Source: a virus
IMG/VR virus record: IMGVR_UViG_3300025314_000001
Span: 1 to 64,000 of that record
DNA: 64,000 bases
Reading direction: 5' to 3' (one strand)
Each line of letters starts with the position of its first letter. Position 1 is the stretch's first letter. The notes under the pieces are model-generated. The model worked only from the letters and a program-made list of their open reading frames with translations, ran no database searches and was not told where the DNA came from. The position numbers and the translations under genes were made by a program. Positions 44,488 through 60,027 of this stretch are shown here, piece after piece.

Positions 44488-44496
44488 GGGCGTGCC

Positions 44497-45588
44497 TCAG
44501 TGAAGCTTCTCCACCGCAAACCGCAGGTTCTGCTCAATGCGGGGCCGGTGCTCTACAGGGAGCAGACCCATGAGCAACCGCCGAGCTACCCTTGCGCTCT
44601 CTTCGTACTTGCCGACCCAGTAAGCCGCGATAGAGAGCTCATCGAGGCTCCGCCACCGGTAGACGCCTTCGTCCAGAAATAGCGTGTCGTCCGGCTTATC
44701 GATGCGCGTAGCGGCGGAGGCAAACAGGTAAGCGGGCCAGAGGGCTCCGGTTTCCCGGTGCATCCGTGCGAGCTCGCAGAGCGGCTCGGCGCGCGTCGGG
44801 CGGACCTGGTAGGCCCGGAGATAGGCCTCGATGGCCTCGGCTCTGCGCCCCAGGTGTTCGAGGTTCCGCGCTACCTGAAACTCAGAGTACCAGACCTCTT
44901 CATCCCAACCGCCCATTTGGGCTCGGCGCCGGTAGGCTTCTAGCGAATTCTCGTACTGCTTGGCGTCCCGCCAGCTCTGGCCGAGGTAGAAGACGTAACG
45001 CGAGTTGTTCGGTTCCTTCTCGAGCGCCTTGGTGATGCCCAGGGCGTGCCGCGTGTACTTCTCCTCCGGGCTCAGCTGGTTCTGCGCCGAGTCGAAGAGG
45101 CCGTGCACGAGTGGCCCCGGCAGACGAGATTCAGTGTGCGGGGCGTCGCAGTAAATGGCCTCGTGGTAGGCGCCACGGTACTCCCACGGGGTCGAGCTCC
45201 GGACCAGCTTCGTCAGCCAGAACCGTACTTCTGAAGCGCCAGACCGTAGCTGCAGCTGGTAGCCGTCGTGTTCGAGCTTTGGCCAGCTGAAGCGCTCTGG
45301 AGCGACAAAGACTTCGTCGGCGTCGAGCACCAGGATGTAGTCGGCTTTTCCGCGCGCCAGTTCCAGAGCCTCGGTTCGGTTGGTGCCGAAGTCCTGCCAG
45401 GGGCGCCGGTGGAGCTCTCCGGGCTTCTGGGCGCCGGCCATGAACTCGCGGATGACCGCGTCGGTTCCGTCCGTGGACTCCAGGTCGTCAACGATGACCC
45501 AGCTATCGATGAACGGCGCGACGGAGCCGAGGCAACGCCGGATGACGTGCGCCTCGTTCTTCACGATCATGTTGAGGCAGACGCTCAT
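44497..45588 (-). CDS. GT2 glycosyltransferase with TPR repeats
   Basis: CLNMIVKNEA..IRRCL.SV, STDGT, WQDFGTNR, LDADE, YHE; C-terminal TPRs. Confidence 0.92.
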   Translation of the reverse strand: MSVCLNMIVKNEAHVIRRCLGSVAPFIDSWVIVDDLESTDGTDAVIREFMAGAQKPGELHRRPWQDFGTNRTEALELARGKADYILVLDADEVFVAPERFSWPKLEHDGYQLQLRSGASEVRFWLTKLVRSSTPWEYRGAYHEAIYCDAPHTESRLPGPLVHGLFDSAQNQLSPEEKYTRHALGITKALEKEPNNSRYVFYLGQSWRDAKQYENSLEAYRRRAQMGGWDEEVWYSEFQVARNLEHLGRRAEAIEAYLRAYQVRPTRAEPLCELARMHRETGALWPAYLFASAATRIDKPDDTLFLDEGVYRWRSLDELSIAAYWVGKYEESARVARRLLMGLLPVEHRPRIEQNLRFAVEKLH

Positions 45589-46106
45589 CCAAACGTTCCG
45601 TACCGACTCGGCTTGATGGCGTGCATCGAGAAGAATAGGTTTCCGCCCTGCCGCTGCGTCCACATCTTCCCGAAGTCGGCCTTGAAGAGCCACCGGTAGT
45701 CGGACATCCAGGTGTGGCCGACCTGAATCCAGTATTGCTCCTGATCGAGAAAGACCAGCGTCTGCTCGGTGAGCATCCGGCGGTGCCCAGGGTCGCCCCA
45801 GGCGTGCTCATGGCTCGCCAGCGGGACCGAGGCCGCAAACAGACCGCCCGGCTTCAGGATGCGCCAGAACTCCGTGAACTGCTCGAAGAAGAACCGGTAG
45901 TCCCCCTGCATACCCGTGTGCTCGAGCACTTCGTAGGCGTGAATCTCGTCGAAGGCGTCCGCCTCGAAAGGGAGGGGTAGGCGCTCGAGGTCATGCAAAA
46001 CGTCGGGCTTGTGGTCGGGGTTGATGTCGAGCGTGACCAGCTTCGTCCACGGCGTATTGCCGACGCGCTTTTCGTGCAGCGCGCCGCAGCCAAGGAGAAG
46101 TTCCAT
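45585..46106 (-). CDS. Class I SAM-dependent methyltransferase
   Basis: LLLGCG, LPFEADAFDEIHAYEVLEH, WRILKPGG, AWGDPGH. Confidence 0.9.
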   Translation of the reverse strand: MELLLGCGALHEKRVGNTPWTKLVTLDINPDHKPDVLHDLERLPLPFEADAFDEIHAYEVLEHTGMQGDYRFFFEQFTEFWRILKPGGLFAASVPLASHEHAWGDPGHRRMLTEQTLVFLDQEQYWIQVGHTWMSDYRWLFKADFGKMWTQRQGGNLFFSMHAIKPSRYGTFG

Positions 46107-46108
46107 GA

Positions 46109-46219
46109 TTACTCCCCCCGCGAGGCGCATCGACGCGCTCGTCCGCGTTCAATTAGTGCGCGGTACTGCTTGCCTGTGAATCGTTGCAGATCATCGAATA
46201 CCAGGACGCTGATGGACAT
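46109..46219 (-). CDS. 36-aa peptide resembling the terminase Walker B segment (not in ORF track)
   Basis: MSISVLVFDDLQRFTGKQYRALIERGR...; start overlaps the bfr stop (TGATG); stop is 2 nt before the MTase start. Confidence 0.55.
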   Translation of the reverse strand: MSISVLVFDDLQRFTGKQYRALIERGRARRCASRGE

Positions 46220-46692
46220 CAGCCCCCCGCGACCTGATTCGCCAGGTAGTTGTCGATTCCGATCTGGGCAATCTGGTCAAGCTGCTGCTCGCTCCACAGA
46301 AGGTGGTCTTCTTCGGACTTCAGATGCTCCTCGAAGAGCGCCCGGCTGCCTTCGTCCTTGAGCTCCACGGCGAGCAACACGGACTCGTTGTACTTGGATA
46401 CGGCGTCGGCTTCCGCCGCCCGGTCGTTCTCGAGCATGGCCTTGGGTTCCGCACCGATCCGGATCTCGTTGAGCTTGCTCACGATGGGCTTTCCCTCGAG
46501 GAACAGGATCCGGTCGATGAGTTCATCGGCGTGCCCCATCTCGGAGCGAGCGAGCCCCATGACGTGTTTTGCCAACGCCGCGTATCCCCATCGGCCATAC
46601 ATGGCCGCGTGTACCACGTACTGGTTGATCGCCGTTAGCTCCTCGGAGAGACGCTCGTTCAGAGCTGCGATGATTCTTGGGTTGCCTTTCAT
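46219..46692 (-). CDS. bfr: Bacterioferritin
   Basis: MKGN..I...LN..L..ELTAINQY; EMGHAD (E51, heme Met52, H54); RILFLEG.P; E94; EEDH (E127/H130). Confidence 0.95.
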   Translation of the reverse strand: MKGNPRIIAALNERLSEELTAINQYVVHAAMYGRWGYAALAKHVMGLARSEMGHADELIDRILFLEGKPIVSKLNEIRIGAEPKAMLENDRAAEADAVSKYNESVLLAVELKDEGSRALFEEHLKSEEDHLLWSEQQLDQIAQIGIDNYLANQVAGG

Positions 46693-46695
46693 GAC

Positions 46696-47355
46696 TCACC
46701 ACTTGGGGTAAAAAACTGTGTTTCCGTCGGTGTGGCCCAGGACGACTCCGGGGTGCGCCCAAATCTGCGTGCCGATGTCGCGCACTCGGCAATGGAAGGC
46801 GGTGTCCTCACCTTGCAGGATCCCCTTGTGGAAGAACTGCATGTGCAGGGCCCTAGTCATTCCGGCCTTCTCGGAAGTCTTGTAGGCCAGTGAGCGATAC
46901 TCATCAAAGAGCCGCACCACCAACCCCCGCTTGACAACCTGGAACCCATACCCCGCACTCTCGAACGTCCAGGGTGCCGACGGTTTCGGCTTCGGACACG
47001 GCATGATTACCGGCTCTGCCGCCGCGTTCTTGTAGCAGTAGACGCCGATCGCCAGGTCGACGTTCATGTCGATCAGTGTCTCGGCTTGCTCTGGAGTCCA
47101 CCCGATGTCGGCGTCGACGCTCAGGAAGTGCGACAACCCAGAGTCGAGAAACCGAAGAATCATCTCGTCGCGTGAGTTGCAGATCCCCATTGCTTTGAGG
47201 CTATCCACGCGCACGCGCCCTTGCCAGCGCACCCTTGCTTCGAGCATTCCGGCAACGCAAACGTCGTGGATCTGCCCTTTCTCACTCTGCACGCCGACGA
47301 AGATACCCGCCGTCTCGCTCACACCCATACTCTGCTCCTGTTCTTCAGCCGACAC
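46696..47355 (-). CDS. GT-A fold glycosyltransferase
   Basis: SRDEM...FL, SVDADIGW (DxD), GYGF..VKR, GEDTAF, VVLGH. Confidence 0.8.
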   Translation of the reverse strand: MSAEEQEQSMGVSETAGIFVGVQSEKGQIHDVCVAGMLEARVRWQGRVRVDSLKAMGICNSRDEMILRFLDSGLSHFLSVDADIGWTPEQAETLIDMNVDLAIGVYCYKNAAAEPVIMPCPKPKPSAPWTFESAGYGFQVVKRGLVVRLFDEYRSLAYKTSEKAGMTRALHMQFFHKGILQGEDTAFHCRVRDIGTQIWAHPGVVLGHTDGNTVFYPKW

Positions 47356-47400
47356 CCCGGGCCAACGGGGAGAGGACTGGTTCCTTGCGCTACCCCGCGT

Positions 47401-47835
47401 CTACGGAGTGCGCCTTGATCGCGTCAGCACGACGAACCACGCCAACGGGTCGGTCGTGTCGAGATTCTGTACCTTGAATTCCCCCTCGTAGTCCCCGCTC
47501 AGCATGTACAGGATCTCGGTGTGCGTCGATCCTGTCGGCATCAGCTGAGCGCGCGAAAATCCTCCACCACTTCCTTGGGTAAAGGGTGGCGTGATGGGCC
47601 CGAGCTTTACGTCGCCCATCTCGTAGAGACCCCCGGAGCTGCTGACCTCACGCGCCGAGAGCTGGCGAACTGGGTATCGAATCGGGAGCACGGTATCGAC
47701 GTCCCGGGGCGTGGTATTGGGCTGTCCAATCTTGCTCGGCCAGGTTCGTTCGCGTACCGTGACGGTGATGGTACGGATCGGGGTGGCGACGTTCCGAATT
47801 CGGTCGGCCACGAATCGGAAGCGGTCGAGGTTCAT
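47401..47835 (-). CDS. Head closure (stopper) protein
   Basis: Size, beta-rich character and position after the connector. Confidence 0.55.
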   Translation of the reverse strand: MNLDRFRFVADRIRNVATPIRTITVTVRERTWPSKIGQPNTTPRDVDTVLPIRYPVRQLSAREVSSSGGLYEMGDVKLGPITPPFTQGSGGGFSRAQLMPTGSTHTEILYMLSGDYEGEFKVQNLDTTDPLAWFVVLTRSRRTP

Positions 47836-47838
47836 CCC

Positions 47839-48213
47839 TTACCGCTCCCTATAGAGCACCGGCGACCCAAAGACGTCACAGCGGGGTGAGTAGTTCATAG
47901 CGTTGAAGAGTCGCCCAATCAACTGCCTCCCCCGCTTGCACAGAATCGCTAACCCGCGCGCCGGATCTATCGTGAGCTCGTTGACCTTGAAGGCCTCGGG
48001 TGCTGTCAGGACCTCCTGAATCTGAAGGTCCAGCGCTGCCAGCTCTGTAAGGTACCCGATGATCAGCAGCTCGGCTGACGAGTCCGGGTTGATCCCACCG
48101 TCCGCAATCGACTGGCACGCCGTGATCTGGCGCTCCAGCTGGAGATCTCGATGAGCAGCCGCCCATCCTCCCCAGGCTCGGATTGCGGCGCGGTGGGACT
48201 CGGTAAAGGCCAT
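47839..48213 (-). CDS. Head-tail connector/adaptor
   Basis: MAFTESHRAAIR..GW; helical; position. Confidence 0.55.
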   Translation of the reverse strand: MAFTESHRAAIRAWGGWAAAHRDLQLERQITACQSIADGGINPDSSAELLIIGYLTELAALDLQIQEVLTAPEAFKVNELTIDPARGLAILCKRGRQLIGRLFNAMNYSPRCDVFGSPVLYRER

Positions 48214-48217
48214 TGGT

Positions 48218-48721
48218 CTATCTGCCTTTGGGTCCCTTCGGGGCCTGGTCGATCTTGGCGATCTCCGCCTGAAGCTCGGCGAGCTCTTCGTCTTCGCCGA
48301 CCACGACCTGGGGCCGCTGTTGCATCATGTTTTGCACGATGGCCGCGGTCTCGGCGGCCGCCGTGACCTTTTCCTTGAGCTCACGCTTGCGTGCCGTAGC
48401 GGGGTCGAGCGCGGGGTGCATCGGCGCCGGCTCGCGGCCGCGCTTCTTGAGCTGCGGGGCGAGTCCAGACTGGATGACGCCGTTCTTGTCCGTGAACTGG
48501 ACCGCTTGGTCGTAGATCTTCTCCAAACGGATAGACCCACCTGGTGGTACCACGACATCCTTGTACTTACGGGGCCGTGTCCCTTCAGCCCACTGCTTTT
48601 GCGAAAACTTGTGACCCGCCGCGTCTATCCACAGTCGCAACGTCACGATCTGTTTGGTTGGATTTTCCCAGATGGTGTATTCGTCCTCATTGACGACTGT
48701 CGACATGGTTTCTTGTGGCAT
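48218..48721 (-). CDS. Hypothetical virion-region protein
   Basis: GGAG RBS; operon context. Confidence 0.65.
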   Translation of the reverse strand: MPQETMSTVVNEDEYTIWENPTKQIVTLRLWIDAAGHKFSQKQWAEGTRPRKYKDVVVPPGGSIRLEKIYDQAVQFTDKNGVIQSGLAPQLKKRGREPAPMHPALDPATARKRELKEKVTAAAETAAIVQNMMQQRPQVVVGEDEELAELQAEIAKIDQAPKGPKGR

Positions 48722-48779
48722 GAGACTCTTTGACTCCCTGTTCGTTGTGAAGGTGTACCCGAAGCGTTGTTTGCTTCGA

Positions 48780-49316
48780 CTACGGATCGATGGGCTCGAT
48801 ATGCGCTCCGGCTAACCCAGCCACCACGTGGGCGTTGAGCTGGACAGCTTCGTCGTTGACCAGCGTGATGAGTGTAGCCGTGTTGGTGCAGGTCGCTGCC
48901 GTGATGGCGTTGACGGTGTCGTTGGTCGCGTGGACTCCCGATGCCGTTCGGTGAGCCGTGTATCCGGTGAGGATCGCGTTGGCCAGCGTGATGCCGGTCG
49001 TGACGTCGGTCGCATCGGCTACTGTGATCGACGCCGAGGCGGTCGTTCCGTGGGGAACTCCGTCGGGTGCGTGCTGGTTGTAGATGCCCTTGACGTCGTT
49101 GACGAGCGTTACGGCTGTCGCCGCCGTTGTCGCCGCTACGGTGCTACATGCCAGCGCACCCGGCATGGTGGGCTCCATCGGGTCATCCACCGAAGCGCGC
49201 GAAATGTCGTAGTGGATGTTCGTCGAAACCACTGCTTCGCGCAGCGCATTGAATGCCAGCGCGATCGTCTTGAGCAGCGAGGCCGGCTCGATGCCTTTTC
49301 TGACTTTCAGACTCAT
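48780..49316 (-). CDS. Putative capsid decoration/head protein
   Basis: Ala/Thr-rich with three internal repeats (TLVND.K..YN.H); follows the MCP. Confidence 0.55.
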   Translation of the reverse strand: MSLKVRKGIEPASLLKTIALAFNALREAVVSTNIHYDISRASVDDPMEPTMPGALACSTVAATTAATAVTLVNDVKGIYNQHAPDGVPHGTTASASITVADATDVTTGITLANAILTGYTAHRTASGVHATNDTVNAITAATCTNTATLITLVNDEAVQLNAHVVAGLAGAHIEPIDP

Positions 49317-49356
49317 GGTGTTGCTCCAGGTCCAGAGGAATGGAAAGGGGTTGGCC

Positions 49357-49403
49357 TGGACGGCGCCGCGCCGCAGGGAGTCACCCCAGCGCGGCGCCCT
49401 CCA
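49357..49403 (-). terminator. GC-rich hairpin after the capsid gene
   Basis: GGCGCCGCGC / GCGCGGCGCC inverted repeat, extended by TGGA/TCCA; no clear U-tract. Confidence 0.4.
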
Positions 49404-49414
49404 GAGCGGCTTGG

Positions 49415-50455
49415 CTACTCGGCGATGTCCGCGATGTACCCGAAGGCACCACGGCGCTTCAGACAGAGCGCCACGGTCGCTTCCATGACGAACTGCACGT
49501 AGCTGCCCAGACGTCCCAGCGGGTAGATCCTGATCGGAATGCTCGACGCGTCGAACACGTTTCCGTCGGCGGTACCCCTAGCCTGGACGATCTGTTGCAT
49601 CGTCTGTTCCCCGAAGGGCGCCGGGGGCAGAAACTGCATCTCGCATTGGTCGGGGTTGAAGGCGACCATGTATCCCGCGCTGCAGTCGATGTCGTCGTCG
49701 ATTGGACGACCTCTCCAGAACAGGTCCTCGGCTCCGAGGTTCGCAGCTCCGCCCATGCCGGCAACGACGGTCTTCTGGTTGAAGAGCCCTTCGTACTTGG
49801 TCTTCACTCCGGGCGAGCAAAGGAAACGCTTCGGCGTGTTGGCCTGGCCGGCGTGCGTTCTGATTCCCTGGTTCAGCTGGGCGATGAGGTCCAGCGTCAG
49901 GGGGCGGTCCGTTCCGCCATTGGCCAACACGGTGCTGACCCAGTAGGTCGAATCGGTGATTGCCGCATAGGCGCCAGACGACGCAATGGCTCCGCCCAGG
50001 AGACCCACGCAGTTCGCGTTCCCTGATCCGTCGGTTCCATCGCCGGTCCACATGTCGGTATTGATGGCCCGAGCGATCGTGGCCGCACCTTCCATGATAC
50101 GGTTGGCGAGCTTGTTCCCGATGATCAGGGGGTTACGTTGCCCGGTCGACGCCAAGACATCGAGCTCGGTCGTCGTGAAACCGAAGGTGTGCCGATAGAT
50201 GCCCCAGCTCAGATAGGCGTTGTCTTCGACCATCTGCGTCGCGTCGCTGGCAGCCACGGTCGCGCCTTCGGCAACGGTTGCGGCGGTTGCACCACCGAGC
50301 TGGGCAGCCCACGCGGCTCGAGGACCACGGGGAACTCCGGTGGGGGCCGGCACCAACGACAGGAGTTTACACTCCTTGTTCCACGTGCGGGCGATATCGG
50401 GCCCGAACTGATCGACGAGAATTGCCGCAGCAACGGTCAGGGTTTCGACAGCCAT
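49415..50455 (-). CDS. Major capsid protein (HK97 fold)
   Basis: 346 aa after the scaffold; VAEG, INTDMWTGDGT...GL, GRPIDDDIDC..G, C-terminal GYIADI. Confidence 0.85.
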   Translation of the reverse strand: MAVETLTVAAAILVDQFGPDIARTWNKECKLLSLVPAPTGVPRGPRAAWAAQLGGATAATVAEGATVAASDATQMVEDNAYLSWGIYRHTFGFTTTELDVLASTGQRNPLIIGNKLANRIMEGAATIARAINTDMWTGDGTDGSGNANCVGLLGGAIASSGAYAAITDSTYWVSTVLANGGTDRPLTLDLIAQLNQGIRTHAGQANTPKRFLCSPGVKTKYEGLFNQKTVVAGMGGAANLGAEDLFWRGRPIDDDIDCSAGYMVAFNPDQCEMQFLPPAPFGEQTMQQIVQARGTADGNVFDASSIPIRIYPLGRLGSYVQFVMEATVALCLKRRGAFGYIADIAE

Positions 50456-50496
50456 GATGACCTCTTCTGGGCGGATCCCCGCCCTCTTGGCTGGGC

Positions 50497-51288
50497 CTAC
50501 TGGCCCAGCAGATTCGCAAACGCGTTACCCACAACCTCTTGCGGGGTGCGCTTTTCACCTGCAGCTGGCGGGAGTCCAGCGCGTTGTCCCGGCTTCTCGC
50601 CGGATCCCGAAGCCCCGACAGGGGGCAGGTACAGTTTCGCCTCTGGCGTCTTGATCCAGGATGAGAGGCCCTGAGTTAACGGGAGTTCTCCCTTCTCGGG
50701 GTCCTTGTAAACGAGCGTTTCTCCGTCTTCGGAGTAACCGATGCGCTTCTTGCCGTCGTAGAGGAACAGCTCCGCCGCTTCGGCGGCCTCTTCCGCGGTG
50801 ATGCCGTTCTTGCCGAGTTCCTTGCGGAGGGCTTGCCGCAGGTTGAGCTCGGTCCGGGCTTTCTTCTCGGCGTCGCGCTGTTGCTCAGCCGACTTGAACT
50901 TCGTGTCGAGCTCGGTGCTATGCTTGGTCAGCAAAGCGATCTGCTTCTTGAGCTCGATGACTTGTGGATCGTCGGGCTTCTCGCCCTGCTTACCCTTGAG
51001 CTCCTTGCCCTTCGTTTCGTCCTCTTCGGCTCGCTGGGTCGGCTGAAGTTCGGACCTCAACTTCGCTTCGAACGCATCGAAGGTCGGCTTCAAGGACTCG
51101 CCCACGGCAGACCCAATTCCTGCAGTGAGCTCCTTCTTGAGCCGCGTACCGAGGCCCGTGATCATCTCGGTTTGCTGAACTTGGAATCCCTCGAATCGCT
51201 TCCCGATGTCGTCGTTCAGCGTCTTGAGGTCATCGGTTCCTAGAACTTCGTGCTCGTTTCCAAACGCATCCTTGATCTTGACGGTCAT
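50497..51288 (-). CDS. Capsid scaffolding protein
   Basis: Charged coiled coil with C-terminal GASGSG; directly upstream of the MCP. Confidence 0.75.
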   Translation of the reverse strand: MTVKIKDAFGNEHEVLGTDDLKTLNDDIGKRFEGFQVQQTEMITGLGTRLKKELTAGIGSAVGESLKPTFDAFEAKLRSELQPTQRAEEDETKGKELKGKQGEKPDDPQVIELKKQIALLTKHSTELDTKFKSAEQQRDAEKKARTELNLRQALRKELGKNGITAEEAAEAAELFLYDGKKRIGYSEDGETLVYKDPEKGELPLTQGLSSWIKTPEAKLYLPPVGASGSGEKPGQRAGLPPAAGEKRTPQEVVGNAFANLLGQ

Positions 51289-51425
51289 GTGCCATTCACC
51301 TTGTCGGTGCCCTGGGATGGAAAACGACGTCCCAGCCGCGTCGCTCGGCTGCTGTTAACCCGTGCTCACTCGTTGCCGCGAACGAGTGCGGGGGTGACTT
51401 TTTGTTGGCCGCCTTACGCCGGGGC

Positions 51426-52076
51426 CTAAACTGGGCGCTCTACGCCAAGGATCGGATTCAGGTACTCCGAGGCTCTGCGTTTCGGTCGCTCACTGACTAC
51501 TGAGGTCAGGTAAATCGAATTCGCGGGCTGTGCGAGCTCGTACTCGATCCAGTCCGGCAACGGCTCGAACAGGCGCTCCTTTTCCACGGAAGCGACAATG
51601 CGCGCTGGGGCCGTTGGAAGGTCACGTAAACGATCCACAATCTGCTTGTACTGTTCTCTCGTGAACCTGGTCAGATGATCGAATGCCACGATGTTGAGCT
51701 CGAGCCCGCAAAGCTCGTTTCCGGTTTCTACGACTTTGCCAATGAACGTGCCCCCATCGGGGAACACGAACATCGGGAAAGGATCACGTCGGAATGAGTA
51801 CTTCACCCACTCGAATGCTTCGGTCGCCTGCCCCACCAGGAACTGTAAGTGGTGCGGATTGGTTGACACGAGCGCCGCGCGGTAGCTGCTGCCGTATCCC
51901 CTTCGCAGCCTGCTCGCCATGACGGACAGAAGCCCCATCGTCTTTCCGGTGGCACGCGGACCGACAATGAAGCTCTGACGGGACTTACTCTCGATGAGCG
52001 CCTGCTGGTGAGGATATGGGTGGAAGTTGAACATGGTTCTTTTGTAGATCTGGCGGCTTGTGCTGACCGGGCTCAC
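51426..52076 (-). CDS. Truncated, degenerate terminase-ATPase paralog
   Basis: PYPHQQ (adenine-binding Q), GPRATGKT Walker A, FVFPDGG, GLELNIVAFDHLTRFTREQY (Walker B E to H); no nuclease domain. Start may be at the later Met (MFNFHP). Confidence 0.75.
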   Translation of the reverse strand: MSPVSTSRQIYKRTMFNFHPYPHQQALIESKSRQSFIVGPRATGKTMGLLSVMASRLRRGYGSSYRAALVSTNPHHLQFLVGQATEAFEWVKYSFRRDPFPMFVFPDGGTFIGKVVETGNELCGLELNIVAFDHLTRFTREQYKQIVDRLRDLPTAPARIVASVEKERLFEPLPDWIEYELAQPANSIYLTSVVSERPKRRASEYLNPILGVERPV

Positions 52077-52103
52077 TCGCGGCCGCGGGCGAGTGGCGGG
52101 GAC

Positions 52104-52970
52104 CTAAGCGCTGAAGAGCGGTCCGCTGCTGGCGCTTCGTCGCCGGTGATACGTCTTGAACTCTGCCTGTCTCTCTTCGCGGAATACCGGAGACTTCAGA
52201 CGCTCATTGCATTCCGGGCAGACTGGCCACGTCGCGACCAGACTCGCATCAGAGACCTTGAAGTTGTGGTCGATGTGGCCAACGAATCGTCCCTCTGTGA
52301 ACAGGTCTACCCCTCCGCAGCAAGGGCATTTTCCGCCTGACGCATAGAGATAGTCCAAGTGCAGCTTCTGGGTCAGCTTGGAAGGGTTCTTACGCTTCGC
52401 GTCGAGGCACCGGAGATTGGACTCTTTGAGTCCGTCTACGTCGGTTCTCAGCCGCGCAAGTTCATGTCCCTGCCGATGTTGCTCGTCCTGAATGGTTGCC
52501 AGAACCGGACCGATCCTTCGCGCAGTAGCTTCCCCAATCATCTCGCATGACTCGGGGGCCAGCCGGACCATGGCCTCTGATGCCTCTTGCCCAAGCTTCC
52601 CCCGTCGCACAGCTTTGAGGGTTCTAGCGAACTCCTGCCGGAGAACCTTTGCCGTGTCCGATCGGACCCGCATAATGACTAGGTAGACTGCCTCTTCTGG
52701 CAGGTAGCATTCGTCGAAGTCGTAGATTCGCTGACCATCGCTTCCTGGATGGCCGGTTCTTTGGCGTCCGGATTCTGGACGCCAAAGAACCCCGCAAATT
52801 TCACTATCTGCCTCCAGTTCTCGGACCGCAGACCGGACCTTTCGTGGCTCTCTTCCGAGCTTCTCGGCTAAGGCCGTGCCAGAGACCCAGTACTCGACGT
52901 CTCCATCCAGTTCACGAGGCAGGAAGGCCCATCCATCACGCAGTACCAGTGCGGAGTTAGGTTCGTTCAT
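52104..52970 (-). CDS. Antirepressor/Bro-N-like DNA-binding protein with C-terminal HNH-like zinc domain
   Basis: CYLPEEAVYLVIMRVRSDTAK; CPCC...HIDH...CPECN. Confidence 0.65.
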   Translation of the reverse strand: MNEPNSALVLRDGWAFLPRELDGDVEYWVSGTALAEKLGREPRKVRSAVRELEADSEICGVLWRPESGRQRTGHPGSDGQRIYDFDECYLPEEAVYLVIMRVRSDTAKVLRQEFARTLKAVRRGKLGQEASEAMVRLAPESCEMIGEATARRIGPVLATIQDEQHRQGHELARLRTDVDGLKESNLRCLDAKRKNPSKLTQKLHLDYLYASGGKCPCCGGVDLFTEGRFVGHIDHNFKVSDASLVATWPVCPECNERLKSPVFREERQAEFKTYHRRRSASSGPLFSA

Positions 52971-53146
52971 TACGCTTCCCAAAAAGCCGGGCGTCCGTCG
53001 CCCGGGGTAGAATCGCCGCTATTCACCGCGTCCGTTGGGGTTCGGGCTCGGCTAGGCCAGCGGCGTGGCCCGTAGTGTTAGCGTCCCAGCCCCTGAGAGA
53101 TCCTCGGCGCCAGAGTTCCTGCGCTTGAAGCGGGAACCGGCCGTGT

Positions 53147-53692
53147 CTACTCAGCAGCGTCGGCGAGCGGCTCCGGACTCGGTGCCCGGCATTCCGGTGA
53201 CAAACCAAACGTGTCGTCTATTTTCGACCCCAAAAACCCGACACGAATCAGCGCAGATTGCTGGTGCTTGGTCAGCTCTGTGAGCTCCACTTGGAGCTTC
53301 CCGACCTTGTCGTCCCACGATCGTTTCTGCGACATCTGGTCCTCTAGCAGGGCCCAGATTTCTGCTAGCTCAGAGAGCTTTTGCCCCCAAGAGTTACGAT
53401 GCTGCTCTAGTTTACCGATAACATCCCCAGCCCACTGGATTCCCGTCTCCAAAGACGTGCAATCTCTCTGTATCGTGTAAGTTCCCCCTGGACGTTGGTT
53501 CAACACCACAGCAACGGTTACTTTGCACTTGTTCGTGTGAATCGACATCATGCTTCGGATGTCGCCGGGGTCATATTTGTCGGAACTCCAGTTCCAATAA
53601 GCGCTTACACCACCGTGGTTCCACGTGCATACCCTCCAGGTTCTACCTTGGTGTGCTTGCTGTTCTTCGTGGATGATGCTGTTCTCGGACAT
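53147..53692 (-). CDS. Hypothetical protein
   Basis: AGGAG RBS before MSENSII; lower GC. Confidence 0.6.
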   Translation of the reverse strand: MSENSIIHEEQQAHQGRTWRVCTWNHGGVSAYWNWSSDKYDPGDIRSMMSIHTNKCKVTVAVVLNQRPGGTYTIQRDCTSLETGIQWAGDVIGKLEQHRNSWGQKLSELAEIWALLEDQMSQKRSWDDKVGKLQVELTELTKHQQSALIRVGFLGSKIDDTFGLSPECRAPSPEPLADAAE

Positions 53693-53730
53693 AGACTTCT
53701 CCTGTTTACCCGTCGCCAAACGGGCATGAA

Positions 53731-54972
53731 TCACTCTCGTTTTCCCCGCGGACCCGGAGGAGGGTAGAGCCTCGGGCGGGTCGCTCCCGCGCTCGACCGG
53801 AAACGGCTGCCCCTGCCGGCGGGCTTCTGCATGTCGTTCAGCCGCTTCAGAAGCGCTTCCGGGCTGCTCTGCCGCACGCCGGGGCGAATACCCTGTGGCC
53901 CTTGCGTAACGGCCCTGATGTAACGGAGGGCGCTTCGGTCCTGGATCTGGAAGACGTTGACAGGGTTGGTCGCCGCCAGCGCGTTGCGCGCTTCCGGTGT
54001 CATCCTTCCCCGTGGAGAGCGCGCCCCAATGAGTTCTCGGAGCTCAGCCTTGATCTCGCCGTAGTCGACCTGGAGCCCCGGGAGCCGGCGCCGCATCGCC
54101 TCGGGGATGACCATGCTCACGACGGCGCACCGGCAGCGGTTGTGCAGTGGTACTTGGGCGTCTTCGTCGAATGGCTTGTCAAACGGGACCATCTGGGCAT
54201 CGAGTCTCCAGCAGACCGCGCAGGTCCGACCGTCCAGGAACGCCGACCAGACCTTGAAGGTCATGGCGGTCCAGCCCCATGGGAGGCCGATGTCCGAGTC
54301 GGTGACCTCGTCGACCCGGGGTCGTGTTCGTCGGGCTGCCTCGTCCCGGAGCCGAGATATCTCGCCCCAGGCGCTTCGGTGCTCGTGGCCGTAGGCCTCG
54401 AAGGCCTGGTAGCTCGCGTGCCCCACGAGCTTGTCGGAGAGCGTTCCGCCGGCGCGCTTCAGCGCTTCCTCGAGTCGCCCCCCGTCGCGCCCCCAAAGCG
54501 AGGTCCCGAGCATCATTGCGCTCGCCCACTGCGACACCGCGGAGCCGGTGGCGATCGTTGCGGCGAGCTCGTCGACCTGTACCGCCTCCCAGACCTTGGG
54601 GGCCGCTGGGATCGTCCAGCCGAATCCCTTGGCCTTCCCGTAGGCCCCGACGATGGCCAGCTCGGACGCTACCTGACCCTGGGCGAGGTCGCGGGCCGCC
54701 ATCCGGCCCCGGGTCGTAGCCTCCCAGAACTGGTCTTCGAGCTGCCCGGTCTCCTGGTGGATGGCCTGGCGAAGGAACCGCTGGGACTCGTCGGCGTCTC
54801 GCGTCTTGGCCCGGCGCCGGTTCGCCTCGATGAGCCTCCCCGTCGCTGCCTGCGTCGCCTCGGTCATCATGCCGAGGCTGACCGCCTCAGCGGCGACGAC
54901 CCGTTGAATTGCGTCCCGGTGCTGAGCCAGCAGACGCTTTCGGGTTTCCTCGCTCAGTACCTTCGGCGGCAT
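53731..54972 (-). CDS. MuF / SPP1 gp7-like minor head protein
   Basis: KVWSAFLDGRTCAVCWRLD...PLHNRCRC. Confidence 0.85.
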   Translation of the reverse strand: MPPKVLSEETRKRLLAQHRDAIQRVVAAEAVSLGMMTEATQAATGRLIEANRRRAKTRDADESQRFLRQAIHQETGQLEDQFWEATTRGRMAARDLAQGQVASELAIVGAYGKAKGFGWTIPAAPKVWEAVQVDELAATIATGSAVSQWASAMMLGTSLWGRDGGRLEEALKRAGGTLSDKLVGHASYQAFEAYGHEHRSAWGEISRLRDEAARRTRPRVDEVTDSDIGLPWGWTAMTFKVWSAFLDGRTCAVCWRLDAQMVPFDKPFDEDAQVPLHNRCRCAVVSMVIPEAMRRRLPGLQVDYGEIKAELRELIGARSPRGRMTPEARNALAATNPVNVFQIQDRSALRYIRAVTQGPQGIRPGVRQSSPEALLKRLNDMQKPAGRGSRFRSSAGATRPRLYPPPGPRGKRE

Positions 54973-56596
54973 TTCGCGGCTTTTCCTCTTCGAGCTCTTC
55001 GTTGCCCTCTTCCGTCCCCTCTTCTCCCGCTCGGAGCGCAGCCTCACGAAGCGCGTCGGTCATGGCCTGGTTCTCGTCGATCCCTTCGTCGATTTCCTTC
55101 TGAATCTGCACCCGCGTCTCGGGCGAGCAGTGCGGGACCAGGGACAGTGCCAGACTGGTCTTGTACTCTTTTTGGAATGTGCTCGACGGGATCGGAATCG
55201 TCTCCACCGTCAGTGCTTCATCGACCAATTCTCCGCGCTCGTTTAGCCGGAACTTCGAGCACCCGTACACGGCCCAGACGACTGCTTCTCTGCGCGCATC
55301 ACTGAGACAGCTGTAGACCTCTTTGGTGGCACGGCGAACGAACTTCCCGAGCGCACCCAAGACCTTCTCGGCTGACGACGAATCCTCTTTTTTGCTCTCC
55401 CCGGAGCGTCCGACCGTGGACGCCGTGTTGGGCAGCGATAGCGCCATCGCCGTTACGGTCAGGTAGATCTCTTCCTTGAGACTTTGGAGGCTCTTGTCGG
55501 CAATACTGAAGGCGTTCCCGCTCGGACTGGCATAGCCGATCTCATCCTTGTCCCCGATGGGTACGATGCCTTTCTCAAGTAAGGCCTGTAGGGTCTTTTC
55601 TCCGCGCTTCTCGTCCTCTCCGGTGGCACTCGGAAGTGCTTCTCCGACTCCTCGGACTTCCGAACCCTGTCGATACCACGGGATTTCGATCAGATTCCTG
55701 CCTATCGCACCGAAGAGATCGGAGCGCCGCTGGAAGTGCTCTTCGGCTAACGCTCCGATCTTATTGCCCGCCCAAAGCCCATCCGGTAGCTCAAGCACTA
55801 CGATCGGAATGCGATTAAACGAGGTCGTTCCCTCACCCACCTGGAACATGATCTCGTTGTCGCCGATGGGATCTCCGATCTTGTGGAGTTTTGACTCGAG
55901 CACCACGAACTTGGCAACCCCGCCCTCCATGTACCAGCACTTGAATCGGCACTTGTACTCGGTGCGCTCGTTCCAAGGGTCAAGGCGCTCGATGAGTTTG
56001 CGCATCGTGATGGCCCATAGCCACTTGCCATCATCTCCGATTCGCCAATCCAAGAGCTCTTGCTGGTCCAGTCCCTCGTCCCAGCAATACCCGCGCCCCG
56101 CCCCCGTCTTCTCTTCTTGGGCCCGGTTCGTGATCTCTGCGCCAACAGGGGGGAAGTCGAGATAGATGACGCCACGCTTGAAGAGCAGCGCCTGCGTCAC
56201 GATGCGGCGCATCACTTCTGCGAAAGGGCTTCCGGCTCGGTCCGCGTCGTTTGCGAAGTCTGGCCAGAATGCCTTGTCCGGTAGCTCCCCCGGAGTGTTC
56301 GGGTCTTTGGCGTCCCCCGCTGCGGTTACCGAAAGCTCTTCCTCGAAAAGCGCCGCGACCAAGTAGTCGACGACCTGGCCAAAGTAGTTGATGTACGAGA
56401 CGCGCTGAATCCGGTACTCGTAAGTCTGCTGCGTCTCGTTGATCGCTTTCTCGATGAATTTTCGCGCCTGCTCCTTGAGCTCATACCCGCCCTTGTAGAG
56501 CAAGCGGATGCGCTGCCAGATCTCCGGCTTGTTCTCCGGATTCTGCTGCGACAGCTTCTTGAAGCCGACGCTGGAAACAGACTCGGCGAAGGCCAT
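54887..56596 (-). CDS. Portal protein
   Basis: ETQQTYEYRIQRVSYINYF, DADRAG, RIPIV, SGESKKED; acidic tail; position. Confidence 0.88.
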   Translation of the reverse strand: MAFAESVSSVGFKKLSQQNPENKPEIWQRIRLLYKGGYELKEQARKFIEKAINETQQTYEYRIQRVSYINYFGQVVDYLVAALFEEELSVTAAGDAKDPNTPGELPDKAFWPDFANDADRAGSPFAEVMRRIVTQALLFKRGVIYLDFPPVGAEITNRAQEEKTGAGRGYCWDEGLDQQELLDWRIGDDGKWLWAITMRKLIERLDPWNERTEYKCRFKCWYMEGGVAKFVVLESKLHKIGDPIGDNEIMFQVGEGTTSFNRIPIVVLELPDGLWAGNKIGALAEEHFQRRSDLFGAIGRNLIEIPWYRQGSEVRGVGEALPSATGEDEKRGEKTLQALLEKGIVPIGDKDEIGYASPSGNAFSIADKSLQSLKEEIYLTVTAMALSLPNTASTVGRSGESKKEDSSSAEKVLGALGKFVRRATKEVYSCLSDARREAVVWAVYGCSKFRLNERGELVDEALTVETIPIPSSTFQKEYKTSLALSLVPHCSPETRVQIQKEIDEGIDENQAMTDALREAALRAGEEGTEEGNEELEEEKPRNAAEGTERGNPKASAGSAPGRNSTGRRR

Positions 56597-56599
56597 CGA

Positions 56600-57232
56600 T
56601 TACCACTGCACGCCGAGGCCAGTCGGGGCTCCGGTGGCGGTTCCGTTCGTCACCCCCACCGAAAGGCCCAGGGTCGTCCCGACGCCCGCAGCGCTGAACG
56701 CAACGACCTCCACCGCTGCGGCCGTCCCGTGGGCGCGCCCGGTCAGAACGTACTCGTCGATCACCACGGCTACGAAGGCGTGGGTTGTGGCCTTGCCCTC
56801 TAGTACCAAGACAGCAGCCTGAACCGCCGCGTTGATCCGAGCGGCGACCAGCGCCTGCGTATCGTCCGTCGCTAAGAACGTGACCACAACGTCCCCGGTG
56901 TCGTAGATCGTTCCTTCGTCGAAACGAAGCGTGACCGTTTCGCCGCCGGCAAAGGTCGGCGTCGTGTCTGCGCTGCTACTCGTGACCGTGGCTGCCGTCC
57001 CGGTCCCAACGGTCTTCCACGGCCCCATGATTCCGTTGGTGTAGCCCGCTCCCAGCGGGATCGCCTTCGTACCCCGACTATCCGTCAGGTAGATCGTCGC
57101 CTCTGAGTTCGCCCATACCAACGCCGCCGGCTTGCCGCCTCCGCCCTCGGCGACCAAGTCGAGGTCGCTGGCAAGCGACGTGTAGTACTCGGTAACGATC
57201 GGCGAAAGGGCCGCCAGAAGCTTGTTGCTCAT
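56600..57232 (-). CDS. Hypothetical virion structural protein
   Basis: Ala/Thr/Val-rich beta protein between TerL and portal. Confidence 0.6.
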   Translation of the reverse strand: MSNKLLAALSPIVTEYYTSLASDLDLVAEGGGGKPAALVWANSEATIYLTDSRGTKAIPLGAGYTNGIMGPWKTVGTGTAATVTSSSADTTPTFAGGETVTLRFDEGTIYDTGDVVVTFLATDDTQALVAARINAAVQAAVLVLEGKATTHAFVAVVIDEYVLTGRAHGTAAAVEVVAFSAAGVGTTLGLSVGVTNGTATGAPTGLGVQW

Positions 57233-57236
57233 CGGT

Positions 57237-58874
57237 TCAACTCATGGTCGGCAGAAACCTAGACCGCATCGCCCGGTCACGTTCCGCCTGTTGGGTGTTG
57301 CAGAGTTCGTCGTGCAGGGCCGCCAACGCATCCACGATATCGTCGTGGTCGTCTTTCTTGGGGTCCCCGGTGAACGACAGGACCTCGTTCAGGAAGACGT
57401 CGACCCATTCGCCGTAGAGCTCAGAGTCTTCTCCGGGCACGAATATGTGTCCCCGTTTCCCTTCGATGGGTTTTCCTTCGTCGTCGGTCGGAACGTTCCA
57501 AGTGGATGAGACCGGGGTTGCGCGGACAAGCTTGTCGGCCGTCGCGCGCAGGGCTCTCAGATAGGTTCGGTTGTTGGCGTCACAGAGGTGCTTTGCGATG
57601 AACTGCGCAGTGCCCTTCTCTCCTCCGCCACCGATGTACCATCGGATGATTCCCCGGCGTTCAGTCAGCTTCGCCTTCATCGTCAGGACGAACGACGTTG
57701 CCTCGACCTGCTTTCGCTCCATCCCGACAACGTAGATGTCACTTCCGAAGATGTAGCCGCGGAGCAGCACCGACCAGTCGGATTTGGTGCCCACCGTGTA
57801 GGCGAGGTCGGCGCCGTAGGCGATCGCGTACCCGCCTTCGCTCGGGAGCCTGGTGAAGCGCTGAACTCCATTAAAGAGCGCTCCCTCGACGGTCTTGACG
57901 AGCCAGTTACCGTCGCGGAGCTGAAGGCGCCTGACGCGGTCTGGAATCGACGCAACGCGCGCCCCGTACTTCGGGTCTGCCCTCGGGTTGTCCGCGAGCA
58001 TTGCCGGAATGAAGGTCCGCGAAAGTGACTTCGGTGTGCCGTCTGGGTTCAGGACCCGTTCTCGGCAGTAGACCTCGTTCCCTGCATCATCGAGGTAGAC
58101 GTGCCAGATTTCTCCGGGCTTGGCCGGAGGAAGCTGTCCAGCCTCGTCTTTGCGCTCTGTCAGTCCCTGCGCTTTGAAGTTCGGGTTGAGCCACGCCCCC
58201 CAGCGTCGGAAGACCCACTCGTGCCCGTTGCCGCCGGGGTTGGTGGTAGCCCGCACGTAGACCGGGAGTCCAGGACGACTTGATCGGTTTCGTCCAATGA
58301 GGAAGGTGTACTGCTGCTCGGTGAAGTGAGTGAGCTCATCGAAGATCAGAAGGTTGATTTCCCAACCGTCGTAGTTCTTCCAGTCGTCCTCGTTGTTGCA
58401 GTGGCTGAGACTGACCTCGGCACCGCTCGGAAACGTCCACCGATAGTGAGGGCTCTGGACCTTCGTCGCACCGGGGCACACCGCCGGGTATAAATCCCAG
58501 CTCTTGTGAATGAGGTCGTCGAGATCTTTGCTTTGGCGACGCAGGATGAGAGTCCGCATCCCCGGCAGGTGACCCCACTTGAGCGGGAACGCGACGGATG
58601 CGGCGGATTTGCCACCCCCAGCGGCCCCGCCATACAGTACCTCATCGCAATCGATGTCCCAGAAAAGCTCCTGAGGGCTTTTCCCGTTGTCGTAGGTGGG
58701 CCTGCCTTCGACGGGCGGATTCGGATTCCAGACTGCGGAGACGTCAAGCGGAACCGGGTCCGACTCTTCGTCCTCAACCGCCCGCAGTCTCGCCAGCCTC
58801 GCGCCGGCGATCGAGCTCCATGAGGTCTTCGAGGATCCCCTGGAGAATCTTTCTTGCAAGAACCCCTTTGACAT
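57237..58874 (-). CDS. terL: Terminase large subunit
   Basis: LYGGAAGGGKS Walker A, LIFDELTHF Walker B, ATTNPGG, RTFIPA.L.DNP, GADLA, HDDIVDA nuclease. Confidence 0.96.
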   Translation of the reverse strand: MSKGFLQERFSRGSSKTSWSSIAGARLARLRAVEDEESDPVPLDVSAVWNPNPPVEGRPTYDNGKSPQELFWDIDCDEVLYGGAAGGGKSAASVAFPLKWGHLPGMRTLILRRQSKDLDDLIHKSWDLYPAVCPGATKVQSPHYRWTFPSGAEVSLSHCNNEDDWKNYDGWEINLLIFDELTHFTEQQYTFLIGRNRSSRPGLPVYVRATTNPGGNGHEWVFRRWGAWLNPNFKAQGLTERKDEAGQLPPAKPGEIWHVYLDDAGNEVYCRERVLNPDGTPKSLSRTFIPAMLADNPRADPKYGARVASIPDRVRRLQLRDGNWLVKTVEGALFNGVQRFTRLPSEGGYAIAYGADLAYTVGTKSDWSVLLRGYIFGSDIYVVGMERKQVEATSFVLTMKAKLTERRGIIRWYIGGGGEKGTAQFIAKHLCDANNRTYLRALRATADKLVRATPVSSTWNVPTDDEGKPIEGKRGHIFVPGEDSELYGEWVDVFLNEVLSFTGDPKKDDHDDIVDALAALHDELCNTQQAERDRAMRSRFLPTMS

Positions 58875-59304
58875 GCTGGTTCAGGTGCTTTTCGACGATG
58901 TCGAGAAACTCCTCTTTCGCTTGCTTGACCTCGACATTGACCTTCTGCCCGTACTTGCCGGGCCTGGTCCGCTCAAGCAGGAAGGCCAGCGCCGTCCATT
59001 GCCCATTACGAATAAGATGTTCGTTGCCGTTGGCGTCGGTGGTGAATGCGTCTTGACCCGCTTTTTGGATGGCTTCGAGCGCCGTCTGCTCGAACATTGC
59101 CTGAGCCTGGTTGACCTTCGTGGCGAAGTCCGTGTAGGCGTTCGTTCTGCCTTCACTCAACGCCTTGTCTCCCCAGCGCTTCCACTCGTAGATAAGCTGG
59201 CGAGACAGCCCGCATCGCTCAGCTGCTGTGGATAGCGGCATCCCCTTGTTGGCGCAGACGCAAATCTTGTTCGTGGTCTCTGTGTCGGGTTTCTGTGCTG
59301 CCAT
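58774..59304 (-). CDS. terS: Terminase small subunit (HTH)
   Basis: AAERCGLSRQLIYEW HTH; WTALAFLLERTRP.KYG; overlaps terL. Confidence 0.8.
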   Translation of the reverse strand: MAAQKPDTETTNKICVCANKGMPLSTAAERCGLSRQLIYEWKRWGDKALSEGRTNAYTDFATKVNQAQAMFEQTALEAIQKAGQDAFTTDANGNEHLIRNGQWTALAFLLERTRPGKYGQKVNVEVKQAKEEFLDIVEKHLNQHVKGVLARKILQGILEDLMELDRRREAGETAGG

Positions 59305-59307
59305 GGA

Positions 59308-60027
59308 CTATTCCGCGGCGGTCGACTCGGGCTCTCCGGCTTTGCGCATTCGGAAGATCTCACGGAGCTTGTCACCGGACTGGAAGCGGTTCGCCTCGAG
59401 TCCAAGCTCTTCCAGAAAGGCCGCCGCGTCTTCTGGCGACTTGAACACCGAGACGAAGTAGAAGTCCGTGGTGTTGTAACGAGCCCCAGCCTCGGCCGTC
59501 TTCGCAACAACCTCACGCGCTGCCCGTAGCCGGTCGGCCATTTCCTCAAGCTTTTGTGCCTCGGCGTTGTCGACCTGGTCTCCGAGCATCCGCATGACGT
59601 CGGCATCGTCGAATCCGGTAGCCTCCAGGTCGAGCCCCGGCAGCATCTCGTTGAGCTTCTCTGGATCCCAATCGCCCTGAGCGGACCAGTTGTTCAGGAG
59701 CAGGTTCGCTTCCTTCTCCTGCTTTTCGTCAAGGTCGACTACCGCAACAGTCAGCAGATAGTCTGGCTTCGTCTCCATCTGGTCTAGAATCGAGAGCCGC
59801 TGGTGCCCGCCAACGAGGTTCCCTGTGCGCTTGTTCCACTGCACGGGCCCCAATAGTTTCAGCTTCTTGATCCCGTTGCGAAGCTTCTTTCGTGCCGCAT
59901 CGCTGATGCGGCGCGGGTTGTAAGGCGCATTCTTGAGCTCACTCCGTCGCCTTACCTCACAGACGAATCCTTCGAATTGCGTCAGCGTGAGCTCTTCGAG
60001 TGAACTAGCCGAGTCCATAGAACTCAC
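59308..60027 (-). CDS. ParB/Sulfiredoxin-like N-terminal domain protein
   Basis: APYNPRRI, PVQWNKRTGNLVGGHQR, EKEANLLLN. Confidence 0.88.
   Translation of the reverse strand: MSSMDSASSLEELTLTQFEGFVCEVRRRSELKNAPYNPRRISDAARKKLRNGIKKLKLLGPVQWNKRTGNLVGGHQRLSILDQMETKPDYLLTVAVVDLDEKQEKEANLLLNNWSAQGDWDPEKLNEMLPGLDLEATGFDDADVMRMLGDQVDNAEAQKLEEMADRLRAAREVVAKTAEAGARYNTTDFYFVSVFKSPEDAAAFLEELGLEANRFQSGDKLREIFRMRKAGEPESTAAE

Follow-up and report, generated by a model that had tools for sequence, protein, structure and literature searches.

Isolated ATPase domains of the large terminase (TerL) suffice to activate the terminase sensors EcAvs2 and Upx, and in AlphaFold 3 models Upx binds unfolded core strands of the TerL ATPase (PMC13601566). 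Avs2 is also activated by the TerL-like T4 protein vs.8, which was described as an uncharacterized ATPase-like protein homologous to the T4 terminase ATPase domain (PMC13601566). Another trigger, of KpAvs2, is Ksap2 of phage Bas60, a small protein with weak structural similarity to the TerL ATPase and no reported sequence homology to TerL (PMC11564622). TerL ATPase look-alikes such as vs.8 and Ksap2 trigger Avs2, and what the phage gains from them is still an open question (PMC13601566). Here we analyzed the first 64 kb (64,000 nucleotides, hereafter the window) of the IMG/VR virus record IMGVR_UViG_3300025314_000001, a genome of 106,685 bases that is rated complete and represents a ~107-kb phage. 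In its late operon, a full terL gene is accompanied by an open reading frame (ORF) for a TerL ATPase-domain-only paralog (51426–52076) and by a 36-codon ORF (46109–46219, hereafter the mini-ORF) carrying a third version of the TerL Walker-B segment.

The explanation that we favor, with a probability of roughly 0.55 for the whole, combines one working TerL, a selected ATPase-only paralog and a mini-ORF that is a relic. Two older derivatives of TerL-like genes would thus stand beside one working terminase and would have met different fates.

Three homologous copies of the Walker-B segment

The initial annotation had quoted three versions of the Walker-B region of the terminase ATPase, and all three strings were recovered exactly, in place, by translation. 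The segment lies at 58275–58358 in TerL, where the Walker-B Asp is followed by the catalytic Glu (DE), at 51615–51698 in the paralog (DH), and at 46130–46213 in the mini-ORF (DD). As had been claimed, the Walker-B Asp is not followed by Glu in either extra copy. A six-frame search of the 106,685 bases with the pattern [hydrophobic]DxLxx[FY][ST]xx[QE][FYW] matched at exactly three places, which were TerL, the 216-aa ORF of the paralog, and the mini-ORF.

In pairwise BLASTP comparisons, TerL was identical to the 216-aa ORF at 13 of 28 positions (expectation value (E) 6e-6) and to the mini-ORF at 14 of 28 (E 7e-8), while the two extra copies shared 10 of 27 residues with each other (E 6e-7). Genome-wide tblastn recovered the mini-ORF with TerL as the query (E 0.003) and with the 216-aa paralog as the query (E 0.007). 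Its tblastn score was 8 bits above the best unrelated match (24.6 bits) in the whole genome, and the observed scores were reached in none of 60 triplet-shuffled genomes. We also built a hidden Markov model (HMM) of the 30-residue Walker-B segment from six proteins, with the mini-ORF left out. When this HMM was run against all open frames of the genome in six-frame translation, the mini-ORF was detected at E 1e-7 and the next unrelated frame at E 2.7. Because BLASTP, tblastn, the shuffled genomes, and the HMM agree, we regard the three segments as homologous and not as chance matches; chance similarity was ruled out by the shuffled genomes and the HMM. Nucleotide identity among the three segments was 49–63%, with third positions about as diverged as expected. 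Therefore none of them is a recent copy, and recent duplication was ruled out on this basis.

The triple occurrence was peculiar to this lineage and no habit of its TerL clade. Across 80 viral loci (964 kb) with a TerL of the same clade, a second Walker-B segment was found in none, and exactly one segment was found in 51. In a separate observation, the Walker-B-bearing TerL frame of a distant relative (L052:967-1584) had only 206 codons, and the TerL match there spanned 1009–2330; this terL may be split or frameshifted.

A TerL ATPase domain without a nuclease domain

The full terL gene (57237–58874, on the minus strand, as is the whole late operon at 44–60 kb) encodes a protein of 545 aa with an ATPase and an RNaseH-like nuclease. 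The protein matched phrog_979 (E 9e-57) over residues 61–533 as well as Pfam Terminase_6N, Terminase_3, and Terminase_6C. The first two Pfam families were above the Pfam cut-offs, and the match of Terminase_6C to the nuclease half was below it (E 0.0023). The translation contained a Walker A motif GGAAGGGKS and a Walker B motif LLIFDE, and the gene is flanked by the small terminase subunit gene (TerS) upstream and the portal gene downstream. As judged from its sequence, it is an ordinary, functional large terminase.

The paralog had been annotated as a protein of 216 aa. The ORF of that length is present, but its most likely start is the ATG at 52034 (Met15), which gives 202 aa, because its gene call and both known homologs begin with MFNFH. 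Against phrog_979, a TerL family, its product scored E 2e-6 over positions 144–302 of the profile. In hhalign, an alignment of the paralog and its two homologs matched an alignment of two TerLs with 97.5% probability (E 7e-12) over 147 columns, corresponding to TerL residues 73–230. A PDB sequence search with the paralog gave no meaningful match. An AlphaFold model was obtained with a predicted local distance difference test score (pLDDT) of 71 and a predicted template modeling score (pTM) of 0.71, and its top Foldseek matches were the TerL ATPase domains of D6E, Sf6, P74-26, and T4 (E 5e-7, template modeling score (TM) 0.63). An independent ESM Atlas model matched TerL N-terminal domains with TM 0.78. 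Profile, alignment, and structural matches thus bear out the earlier view of this ORF as a nuclease-less TerL ATPase, including the structural match to TerL that the initial annotation had asked for, and we conclude that the paralog is a real homolog of the TerL ATPase domain without the nuclease domain.

Alignment with TerL revealed which parts have been kept. The Q-motif region, the Walker A motif (GxxxTGKT; GPRATGKT in the paralog), the FPDGGT strand, and the Walker-B Asp are all present. The position of the catalytic Glu is taken by His in the paralog and both homologs (3/3), and the Arg-Arg pair after the second strand (in TerL and P0012) is replaced by ST, CG, or TT, while the ATTNP coupling motif of TerL reads ASVEK in the paralog homologs. 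The N-terminal 60 residues of TerL are missing as well, and so are the entire nuclease domain and most of what follows motif III; the paralog ends after the ATPase core, and the alignment stops near TerL residue ~300. The protein probably still binds ATP-Mg, because the adenine-binding Q motif, the P-loop, and the Walker-B Asp are kept. It is unlikely to hydrolyze ATP, translocate DNA, or cut DNA, because the catalytic Glu, the Arg-Arg pair, the ATTNP motif, the N-terminal extension, and the nuclease have been lost.

Relatives of the paralog and evidence for selection

Only two close homologs of the paralog were found among 5.8 billion clustered proteins, with identities of 67% (P0007) and 65% (P0008). 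An exhaustive HMMER search over 1.84 billion representatives added only an ordinary 465-aa TerL and a 228-aa TerL-ATPase-like protein (P0010), and it returned no fused forms of the family beyond ordinary TerLs. P0010 comes from another lineage (Logan contig of 13,915 nt) and has a Walker-B Asp-Asn in place of Asp-Glu (DN); it may be a second short TerL look-alike without the catalytic Glu, or else a truncated gene call. No phage relatives were recovered from 50,697 phage records by megablast of 45500–59400 or by tblastn of the paralog and the neighboring HNH protein. Scans of viral, metagenome, and genome contigs with the paralog or its alignment found nothing, and neither did scans for relatives with the major capsid protein and with the bacterioferritin gene (bfr).

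The two close homologs are intact and of equal length. The DH pair, GxxTGKT, and ASVEK are invariant across the three proteins, and their alignment has 107 invariant columns, including the P-loop, DH, ASVEK, and a C-terminal LFEPLPDWIE block. The conservation is uneven along the protein. Compared with P0007, identity was 91% over residues 1–46, 47–56% in the center, and 79% over residues 144–186. P0008 is encoded on a 12,678-nt Logan contig and P0007 on one of 20,960 nt (sediment run X6); the latter is collinear with the window over 45500–52034, with ~90% nucleotide identity in the flanking genes and less than 80% identity over the central 292 bases (97 codons) of the paralog. Given the intact frames of equal length and the 107 invariant columns, we read the paralog as a working gene under selection that encodes a pseudo-ATPase.

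Several observations weigh against this reading. The center of the paralog evolves much faster than the neighboring genes, which could mean decay, there is no Shine-Dalgarno sequence before the ATG at 52034, and the codon adaptation index (CAI) is lowish at 0.656. A low G+C content at third codon positions (GC3), the missing catalytic Glu, Arg pair, coupling motif, and nuclease domain, an adjoining HNH gene, and a repeat that brackets the paralog would likewise suit a paralog that is decaying and without function. Such a remnant might be, for instance, the N-terminal half of a foreign terL that was carried in by the adjacent HNH endonuclease. We consider this unlikely. Neutral decay over such a distance should yield stops or frameshifts, whereas the frames are intact and equally long in three lineages at 65–67% identity, and the N-terminus is still 91% identical to that of P0007. 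The fast center could instead reflect an arms race or relaxed constraint.

A fast center between conserved ends, among neighbors that are ~90% identical, is a pattern of arms-race genes. Combined with the TerL ATPase fold, an intact P-loop, and the missing catalytic Glu, it would suit an anti-defense protein, in which an ATP-locked TerL look-alike soaks up terminase sensors (Avs1-3, Upx) without triggering them, and Avs2 does contact the ATP that is bound by TerL (PMC13601566). Such a role is quite doubtful. A TerL mimic would by default be a trigger and not a block, because isolated TerL ATPase domains, T4 vs.8, and Ksap2 activate Avs2 (PMC13601566, PMC11564622), and activation of Avs2 and Upx persists with Walker-B Asp mutants (PMC13601566, PMC11564622). 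The location in the late head operon also means that the protein would be made together with TerL and not earlier, and the paralog family has only three known members. We give little credence to the broader proposal that non-catalytic TerL look-alikes act against terminase-sensing immunity, with the paralog occupying Avs/Upx sensors without triggering them and a Walker-B peptide perhaps doing likewise for strand-threading sensors. The decoy idea, which the initial annotation had raised, found no support in our analysis and is awkward beside the published Avs2 activation data; it is the less natural reading because TerL look-alikes are triggers by default.

Under the explanation that we favor, the 202-aa protein would be a selected, stand-alone TerL ATPase domain and a product of the late head operon. 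Its most likely mode of action would be through protein contacts that come with the TerL ATPase fold, by which it would assist or modulate either the packaging machinery or a TerL-binding host factor without catalysis of its own.

Probable horizontal acquisition of the paralog

The paralog was 20% identical to the TerL of its own genome and 23–25% identical to foreign TerLs. Its GC3 was 0.71, compared with 0.74–0.85 for most late genes, and in this it groups with an adjoining island of low GC3 (0.62–0.63) at 52104–53734 in the head operon. This island consists of a 195-aa orphan gene (g195, GC3 0.63) and a gene for a 292-aa HNH/endonuclease VII-like protein (GC3 0.62). The latter (52104–52982, minus strand) adjoins the paralog upstream, matched phrog_1035 at E 1.4e-4, and contains a CxxC...HxDH...CxxC arrangement; its N-terminus is weakly BRO-N-like (Pfam Bro-N E 0.006, below threshold). 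It is probably a mobile, free-standing homing endonuclease gene.

A 35-nt, palindrome-containing direct repeat brackets the paralog, with its upstream copy at 52067–52101 and its downstream copy at 51360–51394. The two copies are 80% identical, with a compensatory change in the stem of a 7–8-bp hairpin (CACTCG...CGAGTG). They are the only two in the 107-kb genome, with 0.11 expected by chance. Possible roles of the repeat include a cassette boundary, a site of RNA processing, and a terminator that lacks a U tract. The similarity to the contig that encodes P0007 stops exactly at the ATG of the paralog (52034). Because of the TerL identities, the GC3, the bracketing repeat, and this break, the paralog probably arrived by horizontal transfer in a low-GC3 mobile island and not by a recent duplication of the resident terL.

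The mini-ORF at the bfr–methyltransferase junction

The mini-ORF (46109–46219, minus strand) fits exactly between two genes. Its ATG shares an A with the TGA stop of bfr (TGATG) and is preceded, 3 nt upstream, by a G-rich stretch. Its TAA lies 2 nt before the ATG at 46106 of a methyltransferase gene (MT), whose Shine-Dalgarno sequence (GGGGGGAG) sits within the 3' end of the mini-ORF. Residues 3–30 are homologous to the Walker-B strand and the following helix of TerL. The G-run before the bfr stop (GCG GGG GGC TGA, 46219–46232) has the form of a slippery heptamer.

Two relatives show how this junction varies. The first is an IMG/VR contig (L003), to which two metagenome contigs (L004 and L005) are identical. 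It is collinear with the window from the scaffold gene to the GT2-TPR gene, and its MT is 93% identical to that of the window. In this relative the stop of the glycosyltransferase gene (GT-A) lies 4 nt before the MT ATG, there is neither bfr nor mini-ORF, and no TerL motif was found in any frame. By blastn, nucleotide homology between the window and L003 starts exactly at the MT ATG (46106), and bfr plus the mini-ORF form a 589-nt block (46107–46695) that is missing from L003, where positions 4900–4910 correspond to it. The second relative, the X6 contig with P0007, keeps bfr. Here 340 bases that fail to align at 80% stand in place of the stretch 46050–46217, which spans the whole mini-ORF and the first 19 MT codons. 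The same strain was present in runs X3 and X4, in short contigs outside the mini-ORF. The mini-ORF thus sits where the locus varies most, and it is gained and lost along with bfr. As for bfr itself, it is an accessory insertion in the neck/decoration gene cluster, present in the window and in the X6 contig and absent from L003. In the X6 contig a 1-nt deletion in bfr was reported at 46309, with no compensating change listed.

Searches for relatives of the mini-ORF itself were negative. It was not among the called proteins, and a 40-aa version had no relatives among proteins of near or greater length. A DNA-level search with the back-translated FDDLQRFTGKQY pattern found no relative either. tblastn against the phage records gave only matches at E >= 1, including two Rhizobium phage TerLs, and the only match among PHROGs, an excisionase at E 0.14, is noise. 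GC3 was 0.61 in the mini-ORF, 0.81 in bfr, and 0.85 in the MT gene. The CAI of the mini-ORF (0.646) did not set it apart clearly: 18% of in-frame 36-codon windows of real genes did not exceed this value, and 10% of open off-frame windows reached or exceeded it. No RNA structure was predicted at the mini-ORF (fold z-score -0.32). A 10-nt direct repeat (TCGCGGGGGG) that flanks the mini-ORF was rejected as insignificant, with ~25 such repeats per genome expected by chance.

Most likely, judging from the compared contigs, the mini-ORF is left over from a TerL-like gene and lies at the 3' flank of the bfr insertion, because one relative is without it (L003) and the other has a different sequence in its place (X6 contig). 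The bfr block would have been inserted into the spacer between the glycosyltransferase and MT genes, and its 3' end would have brought along ~110 bases from a TerL-like gene. The 36-codon ORF would then preserve 28 residues of another TerL-like gene, at a junction that is prone to recombination. Its translation may occur via the TGATG overlap with bfr, and we take the ORF to be dispensable and functionless beyond carrying the MT ribosome-binding site.

Three observations weigh against a relic. Despite a nucleotide identity of 49–63%, the mini-ORF keeps exactly the residues that are common to TerL and the paralog; its frame stays open over precisely the interval that begins at the bfr stop and ends 2 nt ahead of the following start codon; and the 340 bases in the X6 contig were seen only as an unaligned stretch, where a diverged or longer homolog is possible. 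The residue conservation and the exact open frame fit a selected micropeptide and equally a recently truncated gene. Since the conserved residues are those that the family conserves, selection either acted on the parent gene until just before it was truncated or acts on the peptide to this day.

These points could be taken to favor a functional, translationally coupled micropeptide that mimics the Walker-B strand and helix of TerL, acting as a competitor for a host sensor of unfolded TerL strands or as a dominant-negative factor against a competitor's terminase. The frame that opens exactly between the flanking genes, the TGATG overlap, the G-run before the start, and the retention of all family-conserved residues at 50% identity are compatible with it, as is the proposal from AlphaFold 3 models that Upx threads unfolded TerL ATPase core strands by beta-augmentation (PMC13601566). 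We judge it a rather improbable explanation, given that the mini-ORF is absent together with bfr from a collinear relative and replaced by other sequence in a second one, has no gene call and no homolog found, and falls below its flanking genes in GC3 and CAI. A strand plus one helix taken from a Rossmann core would, in addition, be unlikely to fold alone.

The G-run suggests a further route to expression, in which a -1 ribosomal slip before the bfr stop would append the mini-ORF to the C-terminus of bacterioferritin. The sequence GCG GGG GGC TGA places G GGG GGC in the zero frame, and a slip there would enter the frame of the mini-ORF. This is highly improbable: no stimulatory structure was predicted downstream (the same z-score of -0.32), the relatives vary in this region or are without it, and to our knowledge G GGG GGC is not known as an efficient slippery site.

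The initial annotation had named absence from relatives as an observation that would tell against its proposals, with relics of recombination as the alternative. On this point the two extra copies part ways. The paralog was intact in two relatives with DH invariant, which does not tell against it; the mini-ORF was absent from L003 and replaced in the X6 contig, and for it the relic is the better reading.

Genome context and other features

The genome has a GC content of ~62%. The public runs that contain it are soil metagenomes, and no RNA datasets are listed among them. In transcription order, the late operon begins with TerS (58774–59304; phrog_4102, E 2.7e-15), TerL (57237–58874), a 210-aa protein, the portal (54887–56596), a MuF-like protein, and the 195-aa protein. 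These are followed by the HNH/endonuclease VII-like gene (52104–52982), the 216-aa ORF (51426–52076), a scaffold-like gene, and the SU10-type major capsid protein gene (49415–50455). Four small head/neck genes come next, then the putative glycosyltransferase GT-A gene upstream of bfr (46696–47355; 50% identical to the L003 gene that abuts MT), bacterioferritin (bfr, 46219–46692; Pfam Ferritin, E 5.5e-29), the 36-codon ORF (46109–46219), the S-adenosylmethionine (SAM) methyltransferase gene (45585–46106; Pfam Methyltransf_11), and the gene for the GT2-TPR protein. No Rfam families were found in 44000–60000.

An array with a CRISPR-like layout was observed at 48–1392 and 106440–106685. A conserved ~36-nt repeat (GTCGGAACGGAGAACAGGATGCGGAGGCAGTGGAGC) occurs there in ~19 or more copies, with variable spacers of ~36–37 nt and a period of 71–74 nt. 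The array crosses both ends of the record, and the 76-nt 'terminal repeat' may belong to it. The gene beside it encodes a 1235-aa protein that is Mre11/Rad50 (SbcCD)-like and not Cas-like. Short tandem repeat arrays were found outside the window at 79160–79354, 90333–90440, and 96197–96271, with periods of ~22/56, 57, and 24–36 nt, respectively.

Comparison with known systems

Among canonical large terminases (phrog_979; Sf6 gp2, 4IEI; D6E, 5OEA; P74-26, 4ZNI), the TerL of the window is a regular member. The paralog has the ATPase core in common with them, from the Q motif to the strand after motif III, and differs by lacking the catalytic Glu, the nuclease domain, and the N-terminal extension. 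Of such a terminase, the mini-ORF has only 28 residues left.

Mosaic phage genomes leave gene fragments at moron and module junctions. The mini-ORF resembles such fragments in that it fills a variable junction and homology to L003 resumes at the ATG of the next gene. It is unlike them in having an open frame tightly coupled to both neighbors, which is not required of a relic. The 36-codon fragment is chiefly a caution: module exchange can leave behind a striking motif even in a mini-ORF that is tightly coupled to its neighbors.

For the paralog, the nearest precedent is T4 vs.8 (NP_049732, 219 aa). Both are stand-alone proteins of ~200 aa with a TerL ATPase fold and a P-loop and without a nuclease, and both are encoded beside a full TerL, restricted to one phage lineage, and unexplained in their role. 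However, the two proteins have no detectable sequence similarity (BLASTP E 19), and they come from different TerL clades, vs.8 from the T4-type clade and the paralog from the phrog_979 clade. T4 vs.8 keeps the Walker-B DE, whereas the paralog has DH. The vs.8 gene lies next to denV, outside the T4 head and packaging genes, while the paralog gene lies in the late head operon. The difference from Ksap2 is of another kind, as the paralog is clearly homologous to TerL by sequence and no such homology was reported for Ksap2.

The paralog would therefore have arisen independently, from another TerL clade, as a natural separation-of-function variant in which the nucleotide-binding parts were kept and the catalytic parts were lost. 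It could show whether TerL look-alikes work by binding and not by hydrolysis, and whether they join or regulate the packaging motor, or trigger or blunt terminase sensors. On the sequence comparisons made here, it is an independent, catalytically crippled analog of a known but unexplained kind of phage protein, of which T4 vs.8 is the closest described example.

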